64,000 bases of DNA, taken from a virus. The notes below the pieces were generated by a model. That model ran no database searches. It saw only the letters and a program-made list of their open reading frames with translations, and had not been told where the DNA came from. A program made the translations under genes and the position numbers. The stretch spans positions 1 to 64,000 of IMG/VR virus record IMGVR_UViG_3300032287_002972; one strand, written 5' to 3'. Below, one piece after another: positions 36,219 through 59,574 of the stretch (within the stretch, counting starts at the first letter, position 1; each line of letters begins with the position of its first letter).

Positions 36219-36917
36219 ATGAAACATTCTGAAGTATTAAGTAGATATGTAAATACTGGGTCAAAAATTCCAGAAGAACAATTTAATCAACTAACACCAT
36301 CATTGAAGAAGTCTTATATGAGGATGAGAAGTGTTGCAGGATACTCTGATTGGGAATTCGAATATTTAACTGATGATGAAAGAATAAAATTTATTGCAAA
36401 AAAAGGTAAAGAATTAGATGGTGATGAAATATATTTATTACTTGAATCTTCAAAAGATAAAGACCTTATTATAACAAAAATTATCAAGGTAAAAGATAGT
36501 ACAACATTACATTTCTTTGACATGAGTGTTATTGATAATGGTTTAGGTGCAGTAGAGTTTCTACTTCAATATTCAAATAATAAAGACCTTATTGCCACGA
36601 AAATTATTGAAAAAATAGGTTATGAATTAGATAATTATGAAATATATTTTTTACTTAAATATTCAGTTAATAAAGATGATATTGCGATAAAAATTATTAA
36701 TGAAAAAGATGGTGAGATAATTTTTAATGAATGTAAATATTTACTTTTTTATTCAAAAGATAAAGAATTAATAAAGAAATTATTATTACAAAATGGTGTT
36801 GATTATAAACATATAAATTATGAGATAACAAGGTATAATATAGATACCCCATTAATACCTGATGATTACCAATCAATGTTAAATGAGATAAGAAGGATTA
36901 AAGAAATGATGATATGA
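36219..36917 (+). CDS. Helical-repeat protein, paralog 1
   Basis: ~29-aa repeats (IIxxKGxELD..EI..LL.YS.NKD.I..K); C-terminal LNEIRRIKEMM. Confidence 0.8.
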   Translation: MKHSEVLSRYVNTGSKIPEEQFNQLTPSLKKSYMRMRSVAGYSDWEFEYLTDDERIKFIAKKGKELDGDEIYLLLESSKDKDLIITKIIKVKDSTTLHFFDMSVIDNGLGAVEFLLQYSNNKDLIATKIIEKIGYELDNYEIYFLLKYSVNKDDIAIKIINEKDGEIIFNECKYLLFYSKDKELIKKLLLQNGVDYKHINYEITRYNIDTPLIPDDYQSMLNEIRRIKEMMI

Positions 36918-37684
36918 AACATTCTGAAGTATTAAGTAGATACGTAAATACTGGACAACGAATACCAGAAGAACAATATGACCGTTTAACACCTGTGTTA
37001 AAGAAGTCTTATCTTAGAATGAGAGGTGTTGCGGGTGATTATTTTGAATGGGAATTTAAAGTAATAAGTGATAATGAAAGAATTAAATATATTGAAAAAT
37101 ACGGTGAAAAATTAGATATTAACGACTTACGGTATTTAATTAGTCTCTCAAGTAATAAAGACAATATTATAACAAAAATTATTGATGTAAGAGTTGAAAA
37201 ATTGGATTCTAACGATATATGGGGTTTACTTTATTCTTCAGATAATAAACATGATATTGTGACAAAAATTATTGATGTAAAAGGTAAAAAATTGGATTCA
37301 AGGGAGATAATACCATTAGTTGCTGTTTTAAAAGAAAATAAATATGATACCACACCAAGTATTTTAAAAATTATTGATGTAAAAGGTGATAATTTGGATG
37401 AACATGATACAAACATTTTACTTAAATATTCAGTTAATAAAGATGATATTGCAATAAAAATTATTAATATAAAGGGTGAAAAAATACATTATGATGAAAT
37501 TTATATTTTACTTGAATATTCAAAAGATAAAGAATTAATAAAGAAATTATTATTACAAAATGGTATTGATTATATATTAATAAATGATGTTATAACTAAT
37601 GATGATATAGATACACCATTAATACCAGATGATTACCAATCAATGTTAAATGAGATAAAAAGGATTAAAGAGATAATGAAATAA
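36914..37684 (+). CDS. Helical-repeat protein, paralog 2
   Basis: Identical start MKHSEVLSRYVNTG and near-identical end to paralog 1. Confidence 0.8.
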   Translation: MKHSEVLSRYVNTGQRIPEEQYDRLTPVLKKSYLRMRGVAGDYFEWEFKVISDNERIKYIEKYGEKLDINDLRYLISLSSNKDNIITKIIDVRVEKLDSNDIWGLLYSSDNKHDIVTKIIDVKGKKLDSREIIPLVAVLKENKYDTTPSILKIIDVKGDNLDEHDTNILLKYSVNKDDIAIKIINIKGEKIHYDEIYILLEYSKDKELIKKLLLQNGIDYILINDVITNDDIDTPLIPDDYQSMLNEIKRIKEIMK

Positions 37685-43669: not shown

Positions 43670-43731
43670 TAATAATTTTTTTATATAAAAATATACAAAA
43701 TATCTTGGAATATTCAAAACTTTTACAGCAT

Positions 43732-43765
43732 AAAAAAACCTTGAATATTTACATTCAAGGTTTTT
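43732..43765 (-). terminator. Intrinsic terminator after portal operon
   Basis: AAAAAAACCTTGAAT-ATTTAC-ATTCAAGGTTTTT. Confidence 0.85.
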
Positions 43766-43783
43766 CATAATTAATATTTTTTT

Positions 43784-51787: not shown

Positions 51788-52573
51788 TCATTGTTTTATA
51801 GATAATTCTTTATCAATGACTTTTGTTTTTATACCCATTAATTTTTTAATATAACCGTTTCTTCTTAACAGTTTAAAAGTTAAATTTTCATAGGAAAATT
51901 CACCACCACTTTCCAAACCACTTTGTCTAAACTTCTTTAATTTATTTTTTATTAATTCTACTTGTTTTATTTTTTCATCACCACTTTTTGTGTCTTTAAC
52001 TAAATCATCAATTTGTTTTTCAAAATCATTACTTTTCTCTAAAATTTTCTTTTCATCTATATCATGTGGTGTTTTTAATTTATTTGGTTCAATAACCCAT
52101 TCATTATTTAAAACAGAATATATTCCAGAAGATATTGATTTATCATTAATATCTTGAACATATAATTCCACTTCATAATTTTTAATTTTAATATTTGTGG
52201 TTAAACCCCAATTTTTTTTCTTTGTTTCAAAAAATTCTTCAATTATTTTTTTATATACATCATTATTCATATTATTTGGTATGATTTCATTTATATCATA
52301 CATAATATGTAAATCAACATCTGAATATTTTGACCAATTATAATTTGAAAGGGAACCTGTCAAATGAACATCAAAAACAAAAAAATCAATTTTTAGATAT
52401 TCTAAAAAATTATCAGTTATTTTTAATAATTTTTCTCTCACATCTTCTCTTAAAATGTAAGATCCATTTTTTTTTTCAAAAATATCTGATGATAAAGAAT
52501 TTTTTATTTTAAAAGATTTTAATATTCTTTTATCTTTTTCAATATCTTCAATTAATTCGTTTAATATACTCAT
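51788..52573 (-). CDS. Pol-beta-superfamily nucleotidyltransferase
   Basis: LTGSLSNYNWSKYSDVDLH (GS...DxD) and VELYVQD. Confidence 0.82.
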   Translation of the reverse strand: MSILNELIEDIEKDKRILKSFKIKNSLSSDIFEKKNGSYILREDVREKLLKITDNFLEYLKIDFFVFDVHLTGSLSNYNWSKYSDVDLHIMYDINEIIPNNMNNDVYKKIIEEFFETKKKNWGLTTNIKIKNYEVELYVQDINDKSISSGIYSVLNNEWVIEPNKLKTPHDIDEKKILEKSNDFEKQIDDLVKDTKSGDEKIKQVELIKNKLKKFRQSGLESGGEFSYENLTFKLLRRNGYIKKLMGIKTKVIDKELSIKQ

Positions 52574-54114: not shown

Positions 54115-56121
54115 ATGGCAGTAGATTATTTTGACGAAGGTCAACAAACATCCTTTAAGAGAGGAAGAAAAGGTTCAAAAACACCAATTCTCGACAATTT
54201 TTCAAGAGATTTGAACAAATTGGCTGAAGAAGGAAAAATTGATCCGGTTATTGGTCGAGATTCTGAAGTAAAAAGAATCGCACAAATTATTTCAAGAAAG
54301 AAAAAAAATAATGTTGTGATTGTTGGTGATGCTGGTGTGGGTAAATCTGTATTAGTTGAAAAATTAGCTTTATTAATCGTTAAAGGAGAATGTCCTTCAA
54401 ATCTTTTAGATAAAAGAATATTATCCTTAGATTTAACTTCATTGGTGGCTGGAACAAAATATAGAGGTCAGTTTGAAGAAAGAATTAAAGCAATTTTAAA
54501 TGAGTTACAAAACGAACCAAACATCATTGTTTTTATTGATGAATTACATACAATGGTTGGTGCGGGTAATGCTAGTGGATCAATGGATGTTGCTAATATT
54601 TTAAAACCAGCACTTGCTCGTGGAGAAATTCAATGTATAGGTGCGACAACTTTTGATGAATATAAAAAACATATTGAAAAAGATGCGGCATTAGTTAGGA
54701 GATTTCAAAAGATTCTTTTAAAAGAACCAACAAAAAGTGAAACTATCCTCATTTTAAATAATCTAAAAGATGTTTACCAAAACTTCCATAAAGTCAATTA
54801 TAGTGATGATGTTGTGGAAACTATTGTGAATTTATCGGGACAATATATTACTGATAGACAATTTCCAGATAAGGCAATTGATATTTTAGATGAACTAGGT
54901 TCTAATAAAAAAATAAATATAAAATCACCCGAAGTAATTGAAGAATTAAAAAAAGAGATAGAAAAAATAAAAGAAAGTAAATTACAGGTAGTGAAAAATC
55001 AAAATTATGAACAAGCTGCCAAACTTAGAGACGAAGAAAAGAAACTTTTAGTTAAACTAGATACTGAAAAAACTGATTGGTCTGAAAAACAAAAGAATAA
55101 TTTAATTCCAATTAACGTAGATGATGTATATAATATTGTTTCTGAAATTACCGGAATACCAATTTCTAAGTTAGATAGTAATGAAACCGAAAAACTAATA
55201 AAACTTGAAGAAAAACTTTCTTCAAAAATTATTGGTCAAAATGATGCTATTTCAATTATATCTAAATCCATAAGAAGAAACAGAGTTGGTATCAAAGATA
55301 ATAATAGACCTATTGGTTCATTTATTTTTCTCGGTTCAACAGGTGTTGGTAAGACATACTTAGCGAAAACTATTGCTGAAGTTGTTTTTGGTGATCCAAA
55401 TAAAATGATTCGAGTTGATATGAGTGAATTCATGGAAAAACATAATGTTTCTCGTTTAATTGGTTCACCACCAGGATATATTGGTCATGACGAAGGTGGT
55501 CAATTAACTGAAAAGATAAAAAATAATCCGTTTTCAGTTATTCTTTTTGACGAAATAGAAAAGGCACATAAAGATGTTTATAATATTCTTTTACAAATAA
55601 TGGACGAAGGTCATCTTACCGATTCTTTTGGTAGAAAAGTTAATTTTACTAATACCATTATTATTATGACATCCAATGTTGGTGCCAAAAAAGTTTCAGA
55701 TTTTGGAAATGGTTTAGGGTTTGTTACATCTTCTAGTGAACTACAAAAAGATGAAGTAAAAAAGTCTATTGTAAAACAATCACTAAAACAACAATTCACA
55801 CCTGAATTTTTAAATCGGATTGATGATATTATATTATTTAATTCTTTAAACAATGATGATATTAAAAATATTATTGATATTGAATTAAATAAATTGGTTA
55901 AAAGACTTTCTGAAAAGAATTATACCATATCTTTTGATAAAAGTGTAAATGACCAAATTATTAATTTAAATACAATGGAAGAATATGGAGCAAGACCGAT
56001 TAGAAGAATTATTCAAAATTTATGTGAAGATTTTCTTTCTGACGAAATATTAAAAGGTAATATAAAGGAAAATTTACCAATAAATTTAAAATTCGAAGAA
56101 AATAAGATAATAATTTTTTAA
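54115..56121 (+). CDS. clpC: ClpC-like Hsp100 AAA+ ATPase lacking the N-terminal domain
   Basis: DPVIGR, GDAGVGKS, AGTKYRGQFEER, FIDELH, UVR-type middle domain QNYEQAAKLRDEE, GSTGVGKT, RLIGSPPGYIG, LGF loop, YGARP. Confidence 0.92.
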   Translation: MAVDYFDEGQQTSFKRGRKGSKTPILDNFSRDLNKLAEEGKIDPVIGRDSEVKRIAQIISRKKKNNVVIVGDAGVGKSVLVEKLALLIVKGECPSNLLDKRILSLDLTSLVAGTKYRGQFEERIKAILNELQNEPNIIVFIDELHTMVGAGNASGSMDVANILKPALARGEIQCIGATTFDEYKKHIEKDAALVRRFQKILLKEPTKSETILILNNLKDVYQNFHKVNYSDDVVETIVNLSGQYITDRQFPDKAIDILDELGSNKKINIKSPEVIEELKKEIEKIKESKLQVVKNQNYEQAAKLRDEEKKLLVKLDTEKTDWSEKQKNNLIPINVDDVYNIVSEITGIPISKLDSNETEKLIKLEEKLSSKIIGQNDAISIISKSIRRNRVGIKDNNRPIGSFIFLGSTGVGKTYLAKTIAEVVFGDPNKMIRVDMSEFMEKHNVSRLIGSPPGYIGHDEGGQLTEKIKNNPFSVILFDEIEKAHKDVYNILLQIMDEGHLTDSFGRKVNFTNTIIIMTSNVGAKKVSDFGNGLGFVTSSSELQKDEVKKSIVKQSLKQQFTPEFLNRIDDIILFNSLNNDDIKNIIDIELNKLVKRLSEKNYTISFDKSVNDQIINLNTMEEYGARPIRRIIQNLCEDFLSDEILKGNIKENLPINLKFEENKIIIF

Positions 56122-56161
56122 TTTTTTTGTTCTTTTGAGAAATTGTATATATTTATATTCA

Positions 56162-56270
56162 TATATCTTTTATAAATAAGGAATCTTTGCCGATATCCTT
56201 TCGTTTAAGTCGTGGAGTTGAATCCACAAATGACCTGTAAGCCTCGACCCCAAATCGAGGCTTTTTTTTT
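56162..56270 (+). ncRNA. Candidate small RNA A (contains 16S-3'-tail-like GAUAUCCUUUC)
   Basis: TATTTATA at 56150-56157; GC-richer island with no ATG-initiated ORF of note; hairpin GTGGA/TCCAC; terminator AAGCCTCGA/TCGAGGCTT plus T-run. Confidence 0.55.
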
Positions 56271-56331
56271 ATCAAAATTTTTTTTTATCAAAAATATTTA
56301 TTATATTTGTCTTATTAATTAAAAAAAAAAC

Positions 56332-56646
56332 ATGACAAAAGATACTACAACATTAAAATTAACCATACATGGTAAATACGATAATTATACTGATTTTTAT
56401 GCGATGAATAAGAATATTATATATAATAACATAATTGATTTATTTGAATGTTTTAAAGAAGATGAAAAAAAACGTTTAGTTTTAAAATTGTCTGCTAATA
56501 TTGAAAATATTAAATGGAAAACTGATTTAGAATTTACAAGAGAAGAGATACATATTCTTAAAAGGGATGTGTTACCTTATTTTGAAGAACTTGAAGAATA
56601 CGAAACTTGTGAACGAGTAATTAATTTATGTAAACTTTTAGAATAA
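56332..56646 (+). CDS. Hypothetical protein with C-terminal UVR-like motif
   Basis: YFEELEEYETCERV; TATATTTG at 56302-56309. Confidence 0.65.
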   Translation: MTKDTTTLKLTIHGKYDNYTDFYAMNKNIIYNNIIDLFECFKEDEKKRLVLKLSANIENIKWKTDLEFTREEIHILKRDVLPYFEELEEYETCERVINLCKLLE

Positions 56647-56677
56647 AAAAGGGAAGAATTTAAAACTCTTCCCTTTT
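56645..56677. terminator. Bidirectional terminator between convergent genes
   Basis: AAAAAAGGGAAGA...TCTTCCCTTTT. Confidence 0.85.
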
Positions 56678-56697
56678 AAAATTTAATTAAAGTAATG

Positions 56698-56865
56698 TTA
56701 CCATCCTTTTCCTGATACATTACTGTCTTTAGCAAGAGTAAATCCTACCGCACTTAGTATAGTGCTAATCATTCCAGCTTGGCTAGCGCTAATCCAATCC
56801 ATGTAAGTTGCGAAAGAAACTAGTGCTAGTACTAATCCTGCAACTGTGGTTTTCCAATTTTTCAT
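56698..56865 (-). CDS. 55-aa two-TM membrane protein, holin-like (not in ORF track)
   Basis: My translation: MKNWKTTVAGLVLALVSFATYMDWISASQAGMISTILSAVGFTLAKDSNVSGKGW*. TATTTATA upstream. Confidence 0.75.
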   Translation of the reverse strand: MKNWKTTVAGLVLALVSFATYMDWISASQAGMISTILSAVGFTLAKDSNVSGKGW

Positions 56866-56927
56866 AATTTTTAATTTTTTAAAAAAATTTATTTGTTTAT
56901 AAATATCAATATTTTTTAAAATATGAT

Positions 56928-57191
56928 TTATTCTTCAGATGTTGATTCATTTTTTTCTAAATTTTTTTTGTTTATCCATTTATCTAATGATGCTATTCCA
57001 AATGAACCAAGTGTGATTACTAGAAATCCATCAAAAATAAATTCATTAATTAAAAGTTGTTTTCCCATCCAACCTGTAATTATATCGACAATCATGGTTA
57101 AAACCATCATTATAAAGGATATAAACCCTACTACTGATTTCTCATTAATTGAATTTTTATCATCAATTAATTCTTTTATAAATTTTTTCAT
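56928..57191 (-). CDS. 87-aa two-TM membrane protein
   Basis: Hydrophobic segments VVGFISFIMMVLTMIVDII and IFDGFLVITLGSFGIAS. Confidence 0.75.
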   Translation of the reverse strand: MKKFIKELIDDKNSINEKSVVGFISFIMMVLTMIVDIITGWMGKQLLINEFIFDGFLVITLGSFGIASLDKWINKKNLEKNESTSEE

Positions 57192-57269
57192 TTTATTTAT
57201 CTTTGGTTAATTATAAATATCAGTTAAACAACTGATATAATATATTTATATATAAGAAAATTATAACAA

Positions 57270-57872
57270 ATGAAAGAATTTTTTTTAATATTCGTATTAA
57301 TACTGTTTCCGATAATTAAACAGGATAATGATATTAGTTTAAATAAAGTCCCTGTTTTATTTATAGGTGATTCTCATACCTCTAATCATTCATGGGGGTG
57401 GCAGATACTTCTTAGAAATAAAACTAAATTAGAATTACATAATACTTCTGTTGTTGGTAAACATGTATCCACAATGGTTAAAACATCTAAAAAAACGATC
57501 ACACCATATTTTAAGTATTGTTTTATATATGGAGGTGTGAATGATATATATTCAAAACGAAATCCATATTTAGTATACAAAGATATTCAAACTATGGTAA
57601 ATATATGTAATTTAAATAATGTTAAACCTATAGTTATTGTTGGTTTAAACATAAACGAATGTATAAAAACCACAAAAAACCAAGAATATTTTAAACAAAA
57701 CTATATTAAATATCAACAGTTATTAAATGATAGTATTGTTGGTGCTAAAATAATTAATATTAATAATATTAACAGAAATGATTGTTTTGATTGGATTTGT
57801 CATATGAAATATTCTGGACATAAAAAATTATCAGACATAGTAATAAAAGAAATGAATTTTAAATCATATTAA
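57270..57872 (+). CDS. SGNH/GDSL hydrolase with N-terminal signal or anchor
   Basis: FIGDSHT, GGVND, DWICH..YSGH. Confidence 0.88.
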   Translation: MKEFFLIFVLILFPIIKQDNDISLNKVPVLFIGDSHTSNHSWGWQILLRNKTKLELHNTSVVGKHVSTMVKTSKKTITPYFKYCFIYGGVNDIYSKRNPYLVYKDIQTMVNICNLNNVKPIVIVGLNINECIKTTKNQEYFKQNYIKYQQLLNDSIVGAKIININNINRNDCFDWICHMKYSGHKKLSDIVIKEMNFKSY

Positions 57873-57922
57873 TTTGGTATTATGATTTTTTTTTTGTATA
57901 TTTATTCAATTAAATATTTTAT

Positions 57923-58609
57923 ATGTCGTATCCTGAAGAAATCATAAGTGTTGTCATTTCAACAAGAAAAATTGATGATTCTAATGTACTAAAACTTAAA
58001 AAAAAGTTTTCACATCCAAGAACAGAAATATTGGTTTATGAAAATAATAATGATTTTTCTCTTTCTAAATTATATAATAAAGGTTTAGAAGAATCATCTA
58101 ACAATATTGTTGTTTTTATGCACGACGATATCGATATTGAAACACCTAACGTTGCTCACATTATAAATCAATTATTTAGTAAATTTCCTGACCATGGTAT
58201 TATTGGTTTGGCCGGTACAGATGAATTAGTAAGTGGTGTGTGGTGGGAAAAAAGAGATAAATTGTATGGTAAAGTAAAACATCAACATAATGGAAAAATT
58301 CATTGTAATCATTACTCAGAAAGTTTAGGATTTAATCTAAAAGATGTTGTTGCCGTTGATGGTTTGTTTTTTGCAGTACATAAGAATAGAATCAAAGAAA
58401 AATTTGACGAGACCTTTGACGGGTTCCATTTTTATGACATACCTTTTTGTGTTTTAAATTATTTACAAGGTGTTAAAATTGGTGTAACAACTAAAATCAT
58501 GGTAGTACACAAATCAATAGGACAAGTAAATGAACAATGGGTAAATAATAAATTAATTTTTGAAAAAAAATATGGTAATCATTTACCATTATTAATAAAA
58601 ACTTTTTAA
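57923..58609 (+). CDS. GT2-like glycosyltransferase
   Basis: YNKGLEES...VFMHDD, GIIGLAG, VDGLF, FDE.F.GFHFYD. Confidence 0.85.
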   Translation: MSYPEEIISVVISTRKIDDSNVLKLKKKFSHPRTEILVYENNNDFSLSKLYNKGLEESSNNIVVFMHDDIDIETPNVAHIINQLFSKFPDHGIIGLAGTDELVSGVWWEKRDKLYGKVKHQHNGKIHCNHYSESLGFNLKDVVAVDGLFFAVHKNRIKEKFDETFDGFHFYDIPFCVLNYLQGVKIGVTTKIMVVHKSIGQVNEQWVNNKLIFEKKYGNHLPLLIKTF

Positions 58610-58646
58610 GTTTAATCCATATATTTATAATTAAAAAAACCGAATT

Positions 58647-58868
58647 ATGAAAAATTTGTTAGAAAACATTAAAACTTTTTTTGGTGTTGGTAAAAATGTT
58701 GAATCAGCAAAAAATGAAACAATTGTTGATGTTAAACCACAAGTAACCGAAAAAAAATCAAGTGTTAAGCAATCGAAACCTAAGAAAAAATCAACGGAGG
58801 AGATTCCTACAATTACACTTGATACTGTAACAATCACCGCAAGTAAAAAAGAATCAGAAGGAAACTAA
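58647..58868 (+). CDS. Hypothetical protein
   Basis: TATTTATA at 58622-58629; directly upstream of the tmRNA. Confidence 0.55.
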   Translation: MKNLLENIKTFFGVGKNVESAKNETIVDVKPQVTEKKSSVKQSKPKKKSTEEIPTITLDTVTITASKKESEGN

Positions 58869-58885
58869 TTTATTTTTTTATTAAT

Positions 58886-59309
58886 GGGGATGACATAGAA
58901 TCGATTGGTGTTAATATTGTGAGTAGGCACGTAGTCGGATTTCATCTACGACTTTAATAAATGGTGGAAAAAATTAGACGGAGACGTTTACAAAAACATG
59001 GAAATTGTTGGTTTACTAGCAACTTCTAACGTGGAAGTAGCCTAAGGGTAAAAACACGAAACGGGTCGGTGGACATATAACCTTGGAACAGAAGTCCCTA
59101 CGGTGTGATACAACCATAAAAGTGTCAAAGGTCTAGTTCAGAGAACTACCTATAAACCCATGAAAATGGTAAAAGTGAACTCGACACAGTTTTCGGTAAC
59201 AATGTCAAAATAGGAACCAAATATTTGTCAGTTGTGAATTAATTGAATAAACGTGTAGTCTATTTATGGTATTGCAAACAAGACCTGGTGGCAGTGACCA
59301 GCATCTCCA
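58886..59309 (+). ncRNA. ssrA: tmRNA
   Basis: 5' GGGGATG pairs with 3' CATCTCC (59302-59308) with a G3-U wobble and discriminator A; T-arm CTGGT-GGCAGTG-ACCAG; internal tag frame 58980-59045 GDVYKNMEIVGLLATSNVEVA*; CCA not encoded. Confidence 0.88.
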
Positions 59310-59317
59310 CTTAAACA

Positions 59318-59349
59318 AAAAAACCCACCAATTGGTGGGTTTTTTTTTT
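59318..59349 (+). terminator. Terminator after tmRNA
   Basis: AAACCCACCA-AT-TGGTGGGTTTTTTTTTT. Confidence 0.88.
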
Positions 59350-59449
59350 GTAAAGATTTTCTTAAATGAATGTTTTAAATTAATAATTTAGATTTTTTAA
59401 TAAATATATCATAATAATATATTTTTTTTTTATAAATGTAAACACTATA

Positions 59450-59548
59450 AACAAACAAAGGAGTCAAATTGACTCCTTTGTTGAGATTTTGATACCTCCT
59501 TTCGTTTTTAGTTTATTTATTATCATATAGCGACCAACCATATGAGTC
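59450..59548 (-). ncRNA. Candidate small RNA B carrying an extended Shine-Dalgarno (GAAAGGAGGU)
   Basis: Minus-strand TATTTAT at 59554-59560; 8-bp 5' hairpin (59523-59545) whose G-U pair works only on the minus strand; SD at 59494-59503; terminator 59454-59482. A 25-aa ORF (59464-59541) is an alternative reading. Confidence 0.55.
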
Positions 59549-59574
59549 TATTAATAAATATCACAAAATTTATT

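Follow-up and report, generated by a model that had tools for sequence, protein, structure and literature searches.

The window analysed here covers positions 1 to 64,000 of a 168-kb phage contig (IMG/VR record IMGVR_UViG_3300032287_002972; 27.5% GC, estimated to be 50% complete), and it carries two small RNA genes, A and B, whose products are predicted to pair with each other. Genes for capsid, protease, portal, terminase, KTSC and Hsp20 proteins are followed by that of a ClpC-like ATPase (54115-56121, + strand), which is devoid of an N-domain, carries a UVR motif and is the constant neighbour upstream of A. Gene order and relatives group the phage with the Bacteroidota phages that Chen et al. 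2022 (PMC9723584) described from fresh water, and we infer a Bacteroidota host. RNA A, a candidate antisense small RNA (sRNA) of about 100 nucleotides (nt), lies directly 3' of the clp gene (putative ends 56162-56270, + strand), whereas RNA B, a candidate target-mimic sponge of similar length bearing an extended Shine-Dalgarno (SD) sequence (putative ends 59447-59548, - strand), is convergent with a transfer-messenger RNA (tmRNA) gene (58886-59312, + strand). A sequence-only reading had placed two mutually complementary RNAs on either side of a tmRNA region. The tmRNA, with its tag frame at 58980-59045, was recovered at E=9e-14, under the gathering score, in the same layout as in relatives; ARAGORN did not detect it in the window.

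The two RNA genes and their conservation

Each RNA gene follows a promoter-like motif, TATATATTTATAT for A (56146-56158, + strand) and GATATTTAT for B (59554-59560, - strand), and the TATTTAT motif previously assigned to each was found at 56150 (+) and 59560 (-). The putative promoter of B is of a simple class, common to structural genes and to the presumed target gene of A described below, that clusters before structural genes. In relatives, a TAAATA-n-TTG element is conserved 23-24 nt 5' of the A motif and is lacking from the B promoter, and because of this difference A would be present earlier and B and the target late, a timing suggested by the promoter motifs alone. Upstream of A, relatives also show a TAAATA/TATTTA inverted repeat about 24 nt apart (e.g., L026:10015-10060), degenerate in the window, which may bind a dimeric regulator or else act as a divergent promoter reading into the 3' end of clp. 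A further TATTTAT without an open reading frame (ORF) lies 3' of B, antisense into the tmRNA terminator (59400-59406, - strand).

Both RNAs contain the internal hairpins described in the sequence-only reading. On the + strand, A begins with hairpin P1 (56179-56199), which has a UUUGYC loop and compensatory A-U/U-A/C-G changes at one stem position, and within which 56185-56193 can pair with B 59476-59484, with two mismatches in the window phage. P1 is followed by the seed (56196-56206), by a hairpin with an invariant, T-loop-like UUGAA loop (56212-56227; three of five pairs changed on both sides), by a GACC segment (56231-56235) complementary to GGUC in a B loop (59531-59535), both so nearly invariant as to be uninformative for covariation, and by an intrinsic terminator (56239-56270). 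On the - strand, B comprises a 5' hairpin P1 with a UUGGUC loop and compensatory changes on both sides (59524-59544); the extended SD, which is complementary over 10 nt to the 3' tail of Flavobacteriales 16S and overlaps the A-binding site (59494-59503); an invariant AUCUC (59483-59487) that pairs back on the SD (P3) and places AUC at the position of the rpsU AUG; and a terminator-like 3' hairpin and tail (59450-59482), the tail also pairing in cis with the A-binding site. The UUGAA hairpin of A and both outer hairpins of B covary. As to the terminators earlier proposed for both RNAs, that of A is present as a hairpin and U-tract in all homologues, whereas the label is uncertain for B, since its 3' hairpin has a weak U-tract and is predicted to belong, as one arm, to a three-way junction in which the SD is half hidden.

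Across a clade of Bacteroidota jumbo phages both RNAs are conserved, and in the 168-kb contig (G000) each occurs once. In almost all of 80 relatives, A follows clp directly or past one inserted gene, and a pattern search found it in more than 120 stretches. The pattern for B left the SD unspecified and, within AUCUC, included UCUC and not the A; it returned 75 stretches, 72 of them real, and all distinct real copies have GGAGG or GGGGG at the SD. B and the tmRNA are convergent throughout the clade. Most relatives have a tRNA array separating A from B, and the two RNAs lie 15-30 kb apart in them, as against 3.3 kb in the window phage, which has no such array. B is missing from five large contigs because these end before the distance at which B mostly follows A. 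Searches of Rfam, at gathering-score and at E-value level, gave no family for A or B, just the tmRNA and terminator-type chance matches, which fits RNAs not described before, and 50,697 cultured-phage records gave no match. Y-RNA, tRNA-like and ribozyme identities were considered and rejected, there being no fitting core or 5'-3' stem.

Co-variation of A with B and with an mRNA leader

The same 11-mer occurs at 56196-56206 and 59497-59507, so that A (+) and B (-) can form 11 contiguous Watson-Crick pairs, plus four past a 2-nt bulge, precisely where the sequence-only reading had located them. Only 1 of 3000 shuffles of A gives 11 pairs, a figure conditional on the choice of these two stretches. 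Conservation and covariation of the duplex, which had been proposed as a check, were found in a sample of 40 distinct A/B pairs with both RNAs taken from the same contigs. On a ClpC tree, which held 37 rows of these pairs (L311/L179 and L366/L406 were excluded because the ClpC fragment was too short, and L069 because of an ambiguous G run), the register, counted as the bases that separate CC from CG in A and CG from GG in B, agreed in every row, 15 with three bases and 22 with four. Three changes in A and three in B fall on the same branches, for which a rough branch-length estimate of chance is 4e-5. Outside the tree, L311/L179 is a four-versus-three exception that pairs in a different register.

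Because A and B might both track the host 16S tail, the co-variation was also measured in variable linkers that touch neither 16S nor a cis stem. Cognate A/B pairs outscored swapped ones (p=2e-5 overall and in the larger clade, 1e-4 after thinning), and three control segments each gave p>0.9; cognate binding is predicted at -10.3 versus -8.3 kcal/mol. In a divergent clade, A has gained a second CGUU and B a second AACG, and in an additional A:B helix 38 of the 40 pairs are compatible at its variable position, the window phage and L001 being the exceptions. Direct pairing is the simplest explanation of this co-variation, and it would make A and B two separately encoded non-coding RNAs that act on each other in trans, as expected of an sRNA and its sponge.

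Elsewhere in the 168 kb, AACGAAAGG occurs once, within the leader of a gene for a 119-amino-acid (119-aa) protein (G000:71332-71691, corresponding to L667:2333-2689, beyond the window), which is preceded by its own GATATTTATA motif. The leader segment that can pair with the seed of A (G000:71316-71328) shares an identical 10-mer with B, so that both offer the same site. Among 254 leaders compared with A this one was the best (-15.6 versus -5.8 ± 2.2). The gene was found in 29 of 50 records, including all four that are near-complete. Its homologous leaders carry the seed match in 21 of 26 cases, as against 3.2% of all leaders, which ranks it first of 28 families, and 81% of them pair with A at -9 kcal/mol or better, compared with 4.5% of neighbours. 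Cognate A:leader combinations are better than swapped ones (p=0.007). In a clade where A reads CCUCUCG, the mismatch stays in B and the leader compensates (CGGGAGG or CGAGA, with G opposite C), and in L056 both A and the leader have reverted to the U-A form. A second leader family with AACGA, that of a 250-aa gene, was rejected because the motif is the final codons of the upstream gene; B, tested in the same capacity as antisense to phage leaders, gave no outlier. Judged from these sequence patterns, the seed of A has a second co-varying partner and A is best taken as an sRNA with a messenger RNA (mRNA) target; A would then be the regulator, and B its likely sponge or a co-target. The earlier proposal of a decoy RNA with a titrating partner anticipated the trans pair, which co-evolution supports, and a decoy role that is possible for B, and it missed the mRNA leader.

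The 119-aa protein has no match in Pfam, including UVR (PF02151). Its conserved ENYEFAAIL motif can nevertheless be aligned to the UVR motif in the M-domain of ClpC (pairwise E=0.004), and its nearest named Atlas cluster is UVR (39%, score 0.83). Co-folding with the ClpC M-domain lends weak support, with a score of 0.55 against 0.00 for the best control, 100% agreement between runs and a predicted local distance difference test (pLDDT) value of at least 80. A score in this range is one where passes are often wrong, since passes at or below 0.60 comprised 7 of 80 solved complexes and both of the two passes among 110 mismatched pairs, and it may reflect likeness to solved UVR pairs. The most likely binding partner of the 119-aa protein is the M-domain of this phage ClpC, the gene of which adjoins A.

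A candidate circuit and competing explanations

We think it fairly probable that the phage encodes, entirely by itself, a three-part RNA circuit composed of an antisense sRNA (A), a sponge (B) and the 119-aa mRNA as target. A would act in trans, its seed pairing with the 12-19-nt leader of an mRNA made from a late promoter and covering the A-rich bases before the AUG; initiation in Bacteroidota depends on adenines upstream of the start (PMC13000457), and translation of the 119-aa gene would be lowered. B, expressed from the same late-type promoter and offering the same seed match with two or three more pairing segments, would bind A along most of its length as a target mimic. Once late transcription had supplied sufficient B, A would be titrated and the mRNA released, as a threshold or timer, and the protein could then bind the M-domain of ClpC. 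Free B may in addition grip the 16S tail of 30S subunits that lack bS21, a contact that A would mask.

Several points weigh against this circuit. The sequence cannot separate sponging of A by B from a joint silencing of B and the mRNA by A, and a sponge does not demand an invariant SD. The register offers two phylogenetically independent contrasts, on starred branches, for which a sign test gives p=0.5 and significance is unreachable; the linker test gives p=0.29 in the smaller, 10-member clade with the three-base register, and permutation removes kinship incompletely. The leader match is weak or lost in 5 of 26 phages, including L003 of the window-phage subclade. A:B is stronger than A:mRNA in 16 of 23 phages, but in the window phage the order is inverted (-6.4 for A:B, the weakest duplex of the 40, versus -10.2 for A:mRNA), and sponging may be decaying there.

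Most Bacteroidota genes do not use an SD, and their mRNAs are without one. B in contrast pairs with 16S tails taken from Flavobacteriales genomes over 10 consecutive nt in the window phage and over 9-13 nt in relatives, and the sequence-only reading was correct in that this run, the second-best 16S-tail complement in the 168 kb (the best is inside a coding region), is followed by no AUG. In none of the B genes, in fact, is there an AUG at initiation distance 3' of the SD, and B has neither the start codon nor the ORF of an rpsU-type site. It is tempting to see the effector in B itself, which would copy the rpsU initiation region minus its start and, by capturing the 16S tail of 30S subunits devoid of bS21 or by dislodging bS21, would block the host's bS21 autoregulation; A would then be the antidote to B, and silencing of the 119-aa mRNA a second late function of the module. 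We consider this effector role unlikely, although much of the SD's behaviour fits it. The SD was kept in a search that ignored it; its 3A and 4A forms suit tails that end in UUUCU and UUUUU, the two most common among hosts; the invariant AUC stands 6-12 nt past GGAGG, where rpsU has AUG at 6-10 nt; the SD core is nearly invariant despite being bulged out of the A:B duplex; and A reduces the predicted tail binding of B in 36 of 40 pairs (-11.8 to -8.0). A 13-bp extended SD helix excludes bS21, as reported in PMC13000457, which makes a ribosome decoy plausible for B, and most relatives encode a bS21 of their own. On the other hand, the SD of free B is half hidden in a small hairpin (predicted unpaired 0.46), and part of its conservation could be due, in cis, to this P3 hairpin alone. 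The GGAGA variants of L657 and L658 strengthen P3 and break the SD (as an observation apart, their GGAGAG in place of GGAGG, at about 1550-1570, fits a canonical tail with a bulge or a UCUCC tail variant). Single SD mismatches abolish wild-type initiation on rpsU (PMC13000453), and the window-phage B has just 10 nt. Apart from the SD and its spacing, B showed no resemblance to rpsU leaders, of which just 6 of 31 sampled have GGAGG. We regard binding of B to the ribosomal 16S tail as a tentative proposal, somewhat below an even chance. RNA A, formerly read as a mimic of that tail, is a poor one, since it reads CCUUU(U)CG or CCUCUCG, partly within P1, and exposes no CCUCC-like core.

The distribution of the phage bS21 gene also bears on this question. 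It is encoded between two fixed genes in 30 of 37 relatives, and the window phage has in its place an empty site of about 115 nt with a leftover terminator-like hairpin (43670-43783, unstranded), as do L001, L002, L003 and three close copies. A phage-bS21 profile found no match in the 168-kb contig, which represents about half of the genome. In a ClpC tree with host ClpC as outgroup, this subclade is nested among bS21-bearing phages (support 98/89), which points to loss of bS21, provided that the gene has not been relocated to the part of the genome absent from the contig. Although bS21 and the tRNA array are missing from their usual loci, A, B and the tmRNA are kept in all nine subclade members where the region could be read (L553 shows B and the tmRNA only), so that the pair appears not to depend on phage bS21, contrary to what an effector role would lead one to expect. 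A combined function is doubtful to a slightly lesser degree, namely that B is both a start-less ribosome decoy disabling host bS21 autoregulation and a sponge for A, with A restraining B and the ClpC partner until late. If this were true, a phage module for remodelling host ribosomes would be under the control of a single small RNA.

Other readings account for less of the evidence. The three or four collinear antiparallel segments, and the invariant T-loop-like and UUGGUC loops, might suggest that A and B together make up a single stable structured RNA, or a ribonucleoprotein, in two pieces; this is improbable, given that each RNA has its own covarying fold which competes with the duplex, that the promoter classes differ, that a third partner shares the seed and that no Rfam or ribozyme-like core is present. 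Since the 11-mer is a direct repeat on the + strand, and B and the leader carry the motif just past their promoters, the shared motif could instead be a protein-binding site in RNA or DNA with complementarity as a by-product; however, the changes are compensatory, include G-U-compatible steps and reach lineage-specific linkers, as those of a fixed protein site would not, and we judge this very improbable. Finally, B might be the mRNA of a 25-aa peptide or type I toxin with A as antitoxin, since A is antisense to B and the window genome has the ORF (59541-59464). The ORF is private to that genome; the nearest relative departs from it in frame and in length, an AUG is absent from 11 of 40 B genes, and B thus lacks the conserved small ORF on an antisense-bound RNA that characterizes such systems; nor is the 119-aa target a small hydrophobic peptide. 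That B is simply this ORF, as the sequence-only reading had allowed, is hardly credible.

Genomic setting and relation to known systems

The tmRNA tag ends EVA in the window phage and VAA or AVA in relatives, and the presence of a phage tmRNA beside a phage Clp ATPase suggests a private route of tagging and degradation. In one relative, a group I intron match (Rfam RF00028) lies within the tmRNA region (L400:628-842). Directly 3' of A is a 104-aa gene (56332-56646) with a host-type promoter motif, a terminal EEYE..ER motif similar to the UVR-like one and no Pfam match, and its product may be a second partner of ClpC; in close relatives a cREC_REC (PF20274) gene, absent in the window, separates it from A (L560:12220-12675, L565:12236-12694). 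A 261-aa nucleotidyltransferase-like protein with weak Pfam matches is encoded after the KTSC gene (51788-52573) and is kept beside the clp locus. At least six paralogous genes starting MKHSEVL form two clusters (36219-37684 and G000:77964-82375), and LAGLIDADG inteins occur in the portal and terminase of close relatives (L565:1-4870, L554:132-1511).

The proposed circuit bears on how antisense RNAs might control translation in Bacteroidota, where mRNAs lack an SD, and on rpsU autoregulation as faced by bS21 phages; PMC9976891 asks how such phages overcome this autoregulation in the host, and also speculates on a phage protease. The subclade without bS21 provides a natural control, and the parts are short and amenable to existing Flavobacterium johnsoniae reporters and bS21-free ribosomes. 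In the literature covered, which is incomplete, no sRNA with its mRNA target and its sponge all encoded by one phage, and no natural RNA targeting the 16S anti-SD, has been described.

Individual parts have clear counterparts. AgvB of the enterohaemorrhagic Escherichia coli prophage Sp5 mimics an mRNA target of the pairing sRNA GcvB and titrates it (PMC12197685), and SroC (PMC4474525) and a Caulobacter sponge (PMC12559287) are likewise target mimics that titrate an sRNA. Unlike in these three cases, sRNA, target and sponge would here all be phage genes, known from sequence, B carries an extended SD and there is no common sequence family. The c4 antisense RNA of P1/P7 (PMC12197685) is also a trans-encoded phage RNA that covers the translation start of a phage gene; no sponge is known for c4, its sequence and fold are unrelated to those of A, and Rfam gives no match. 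With the rpsU extended SD and bS21 autoregulation of Flavobacteriales (PMC7797042, PMC9976891 and PMC13000457), B shares the 9-13-nt tail complement and an AUC at the AUG position, a likeness of SD and spacing; it differs in having no start codon or ORF, in an SD folded into a junction and in its presumed antisense control. The bS21-encoding freshwater phages (Chen et al. 2022, PMC9723584) share the gene order terminase, portal, protease, capsid, Hsp20 and Clp, and most relatives of the window phage have bS21, whereas its own subclade has none at the locus; Chen et al. make no mention of non-coding or intergenic RNAs or of a tmRNA. As far as sequence can tell, the A/B pair is not an rpsU-type initiation site, having no start, nor a type I toxin pair, nor a 16S-tail mimic; it belongs to no described RNA family and, in those features that can be read from sequence, it would work like an sRNA and its anti-sRNA.

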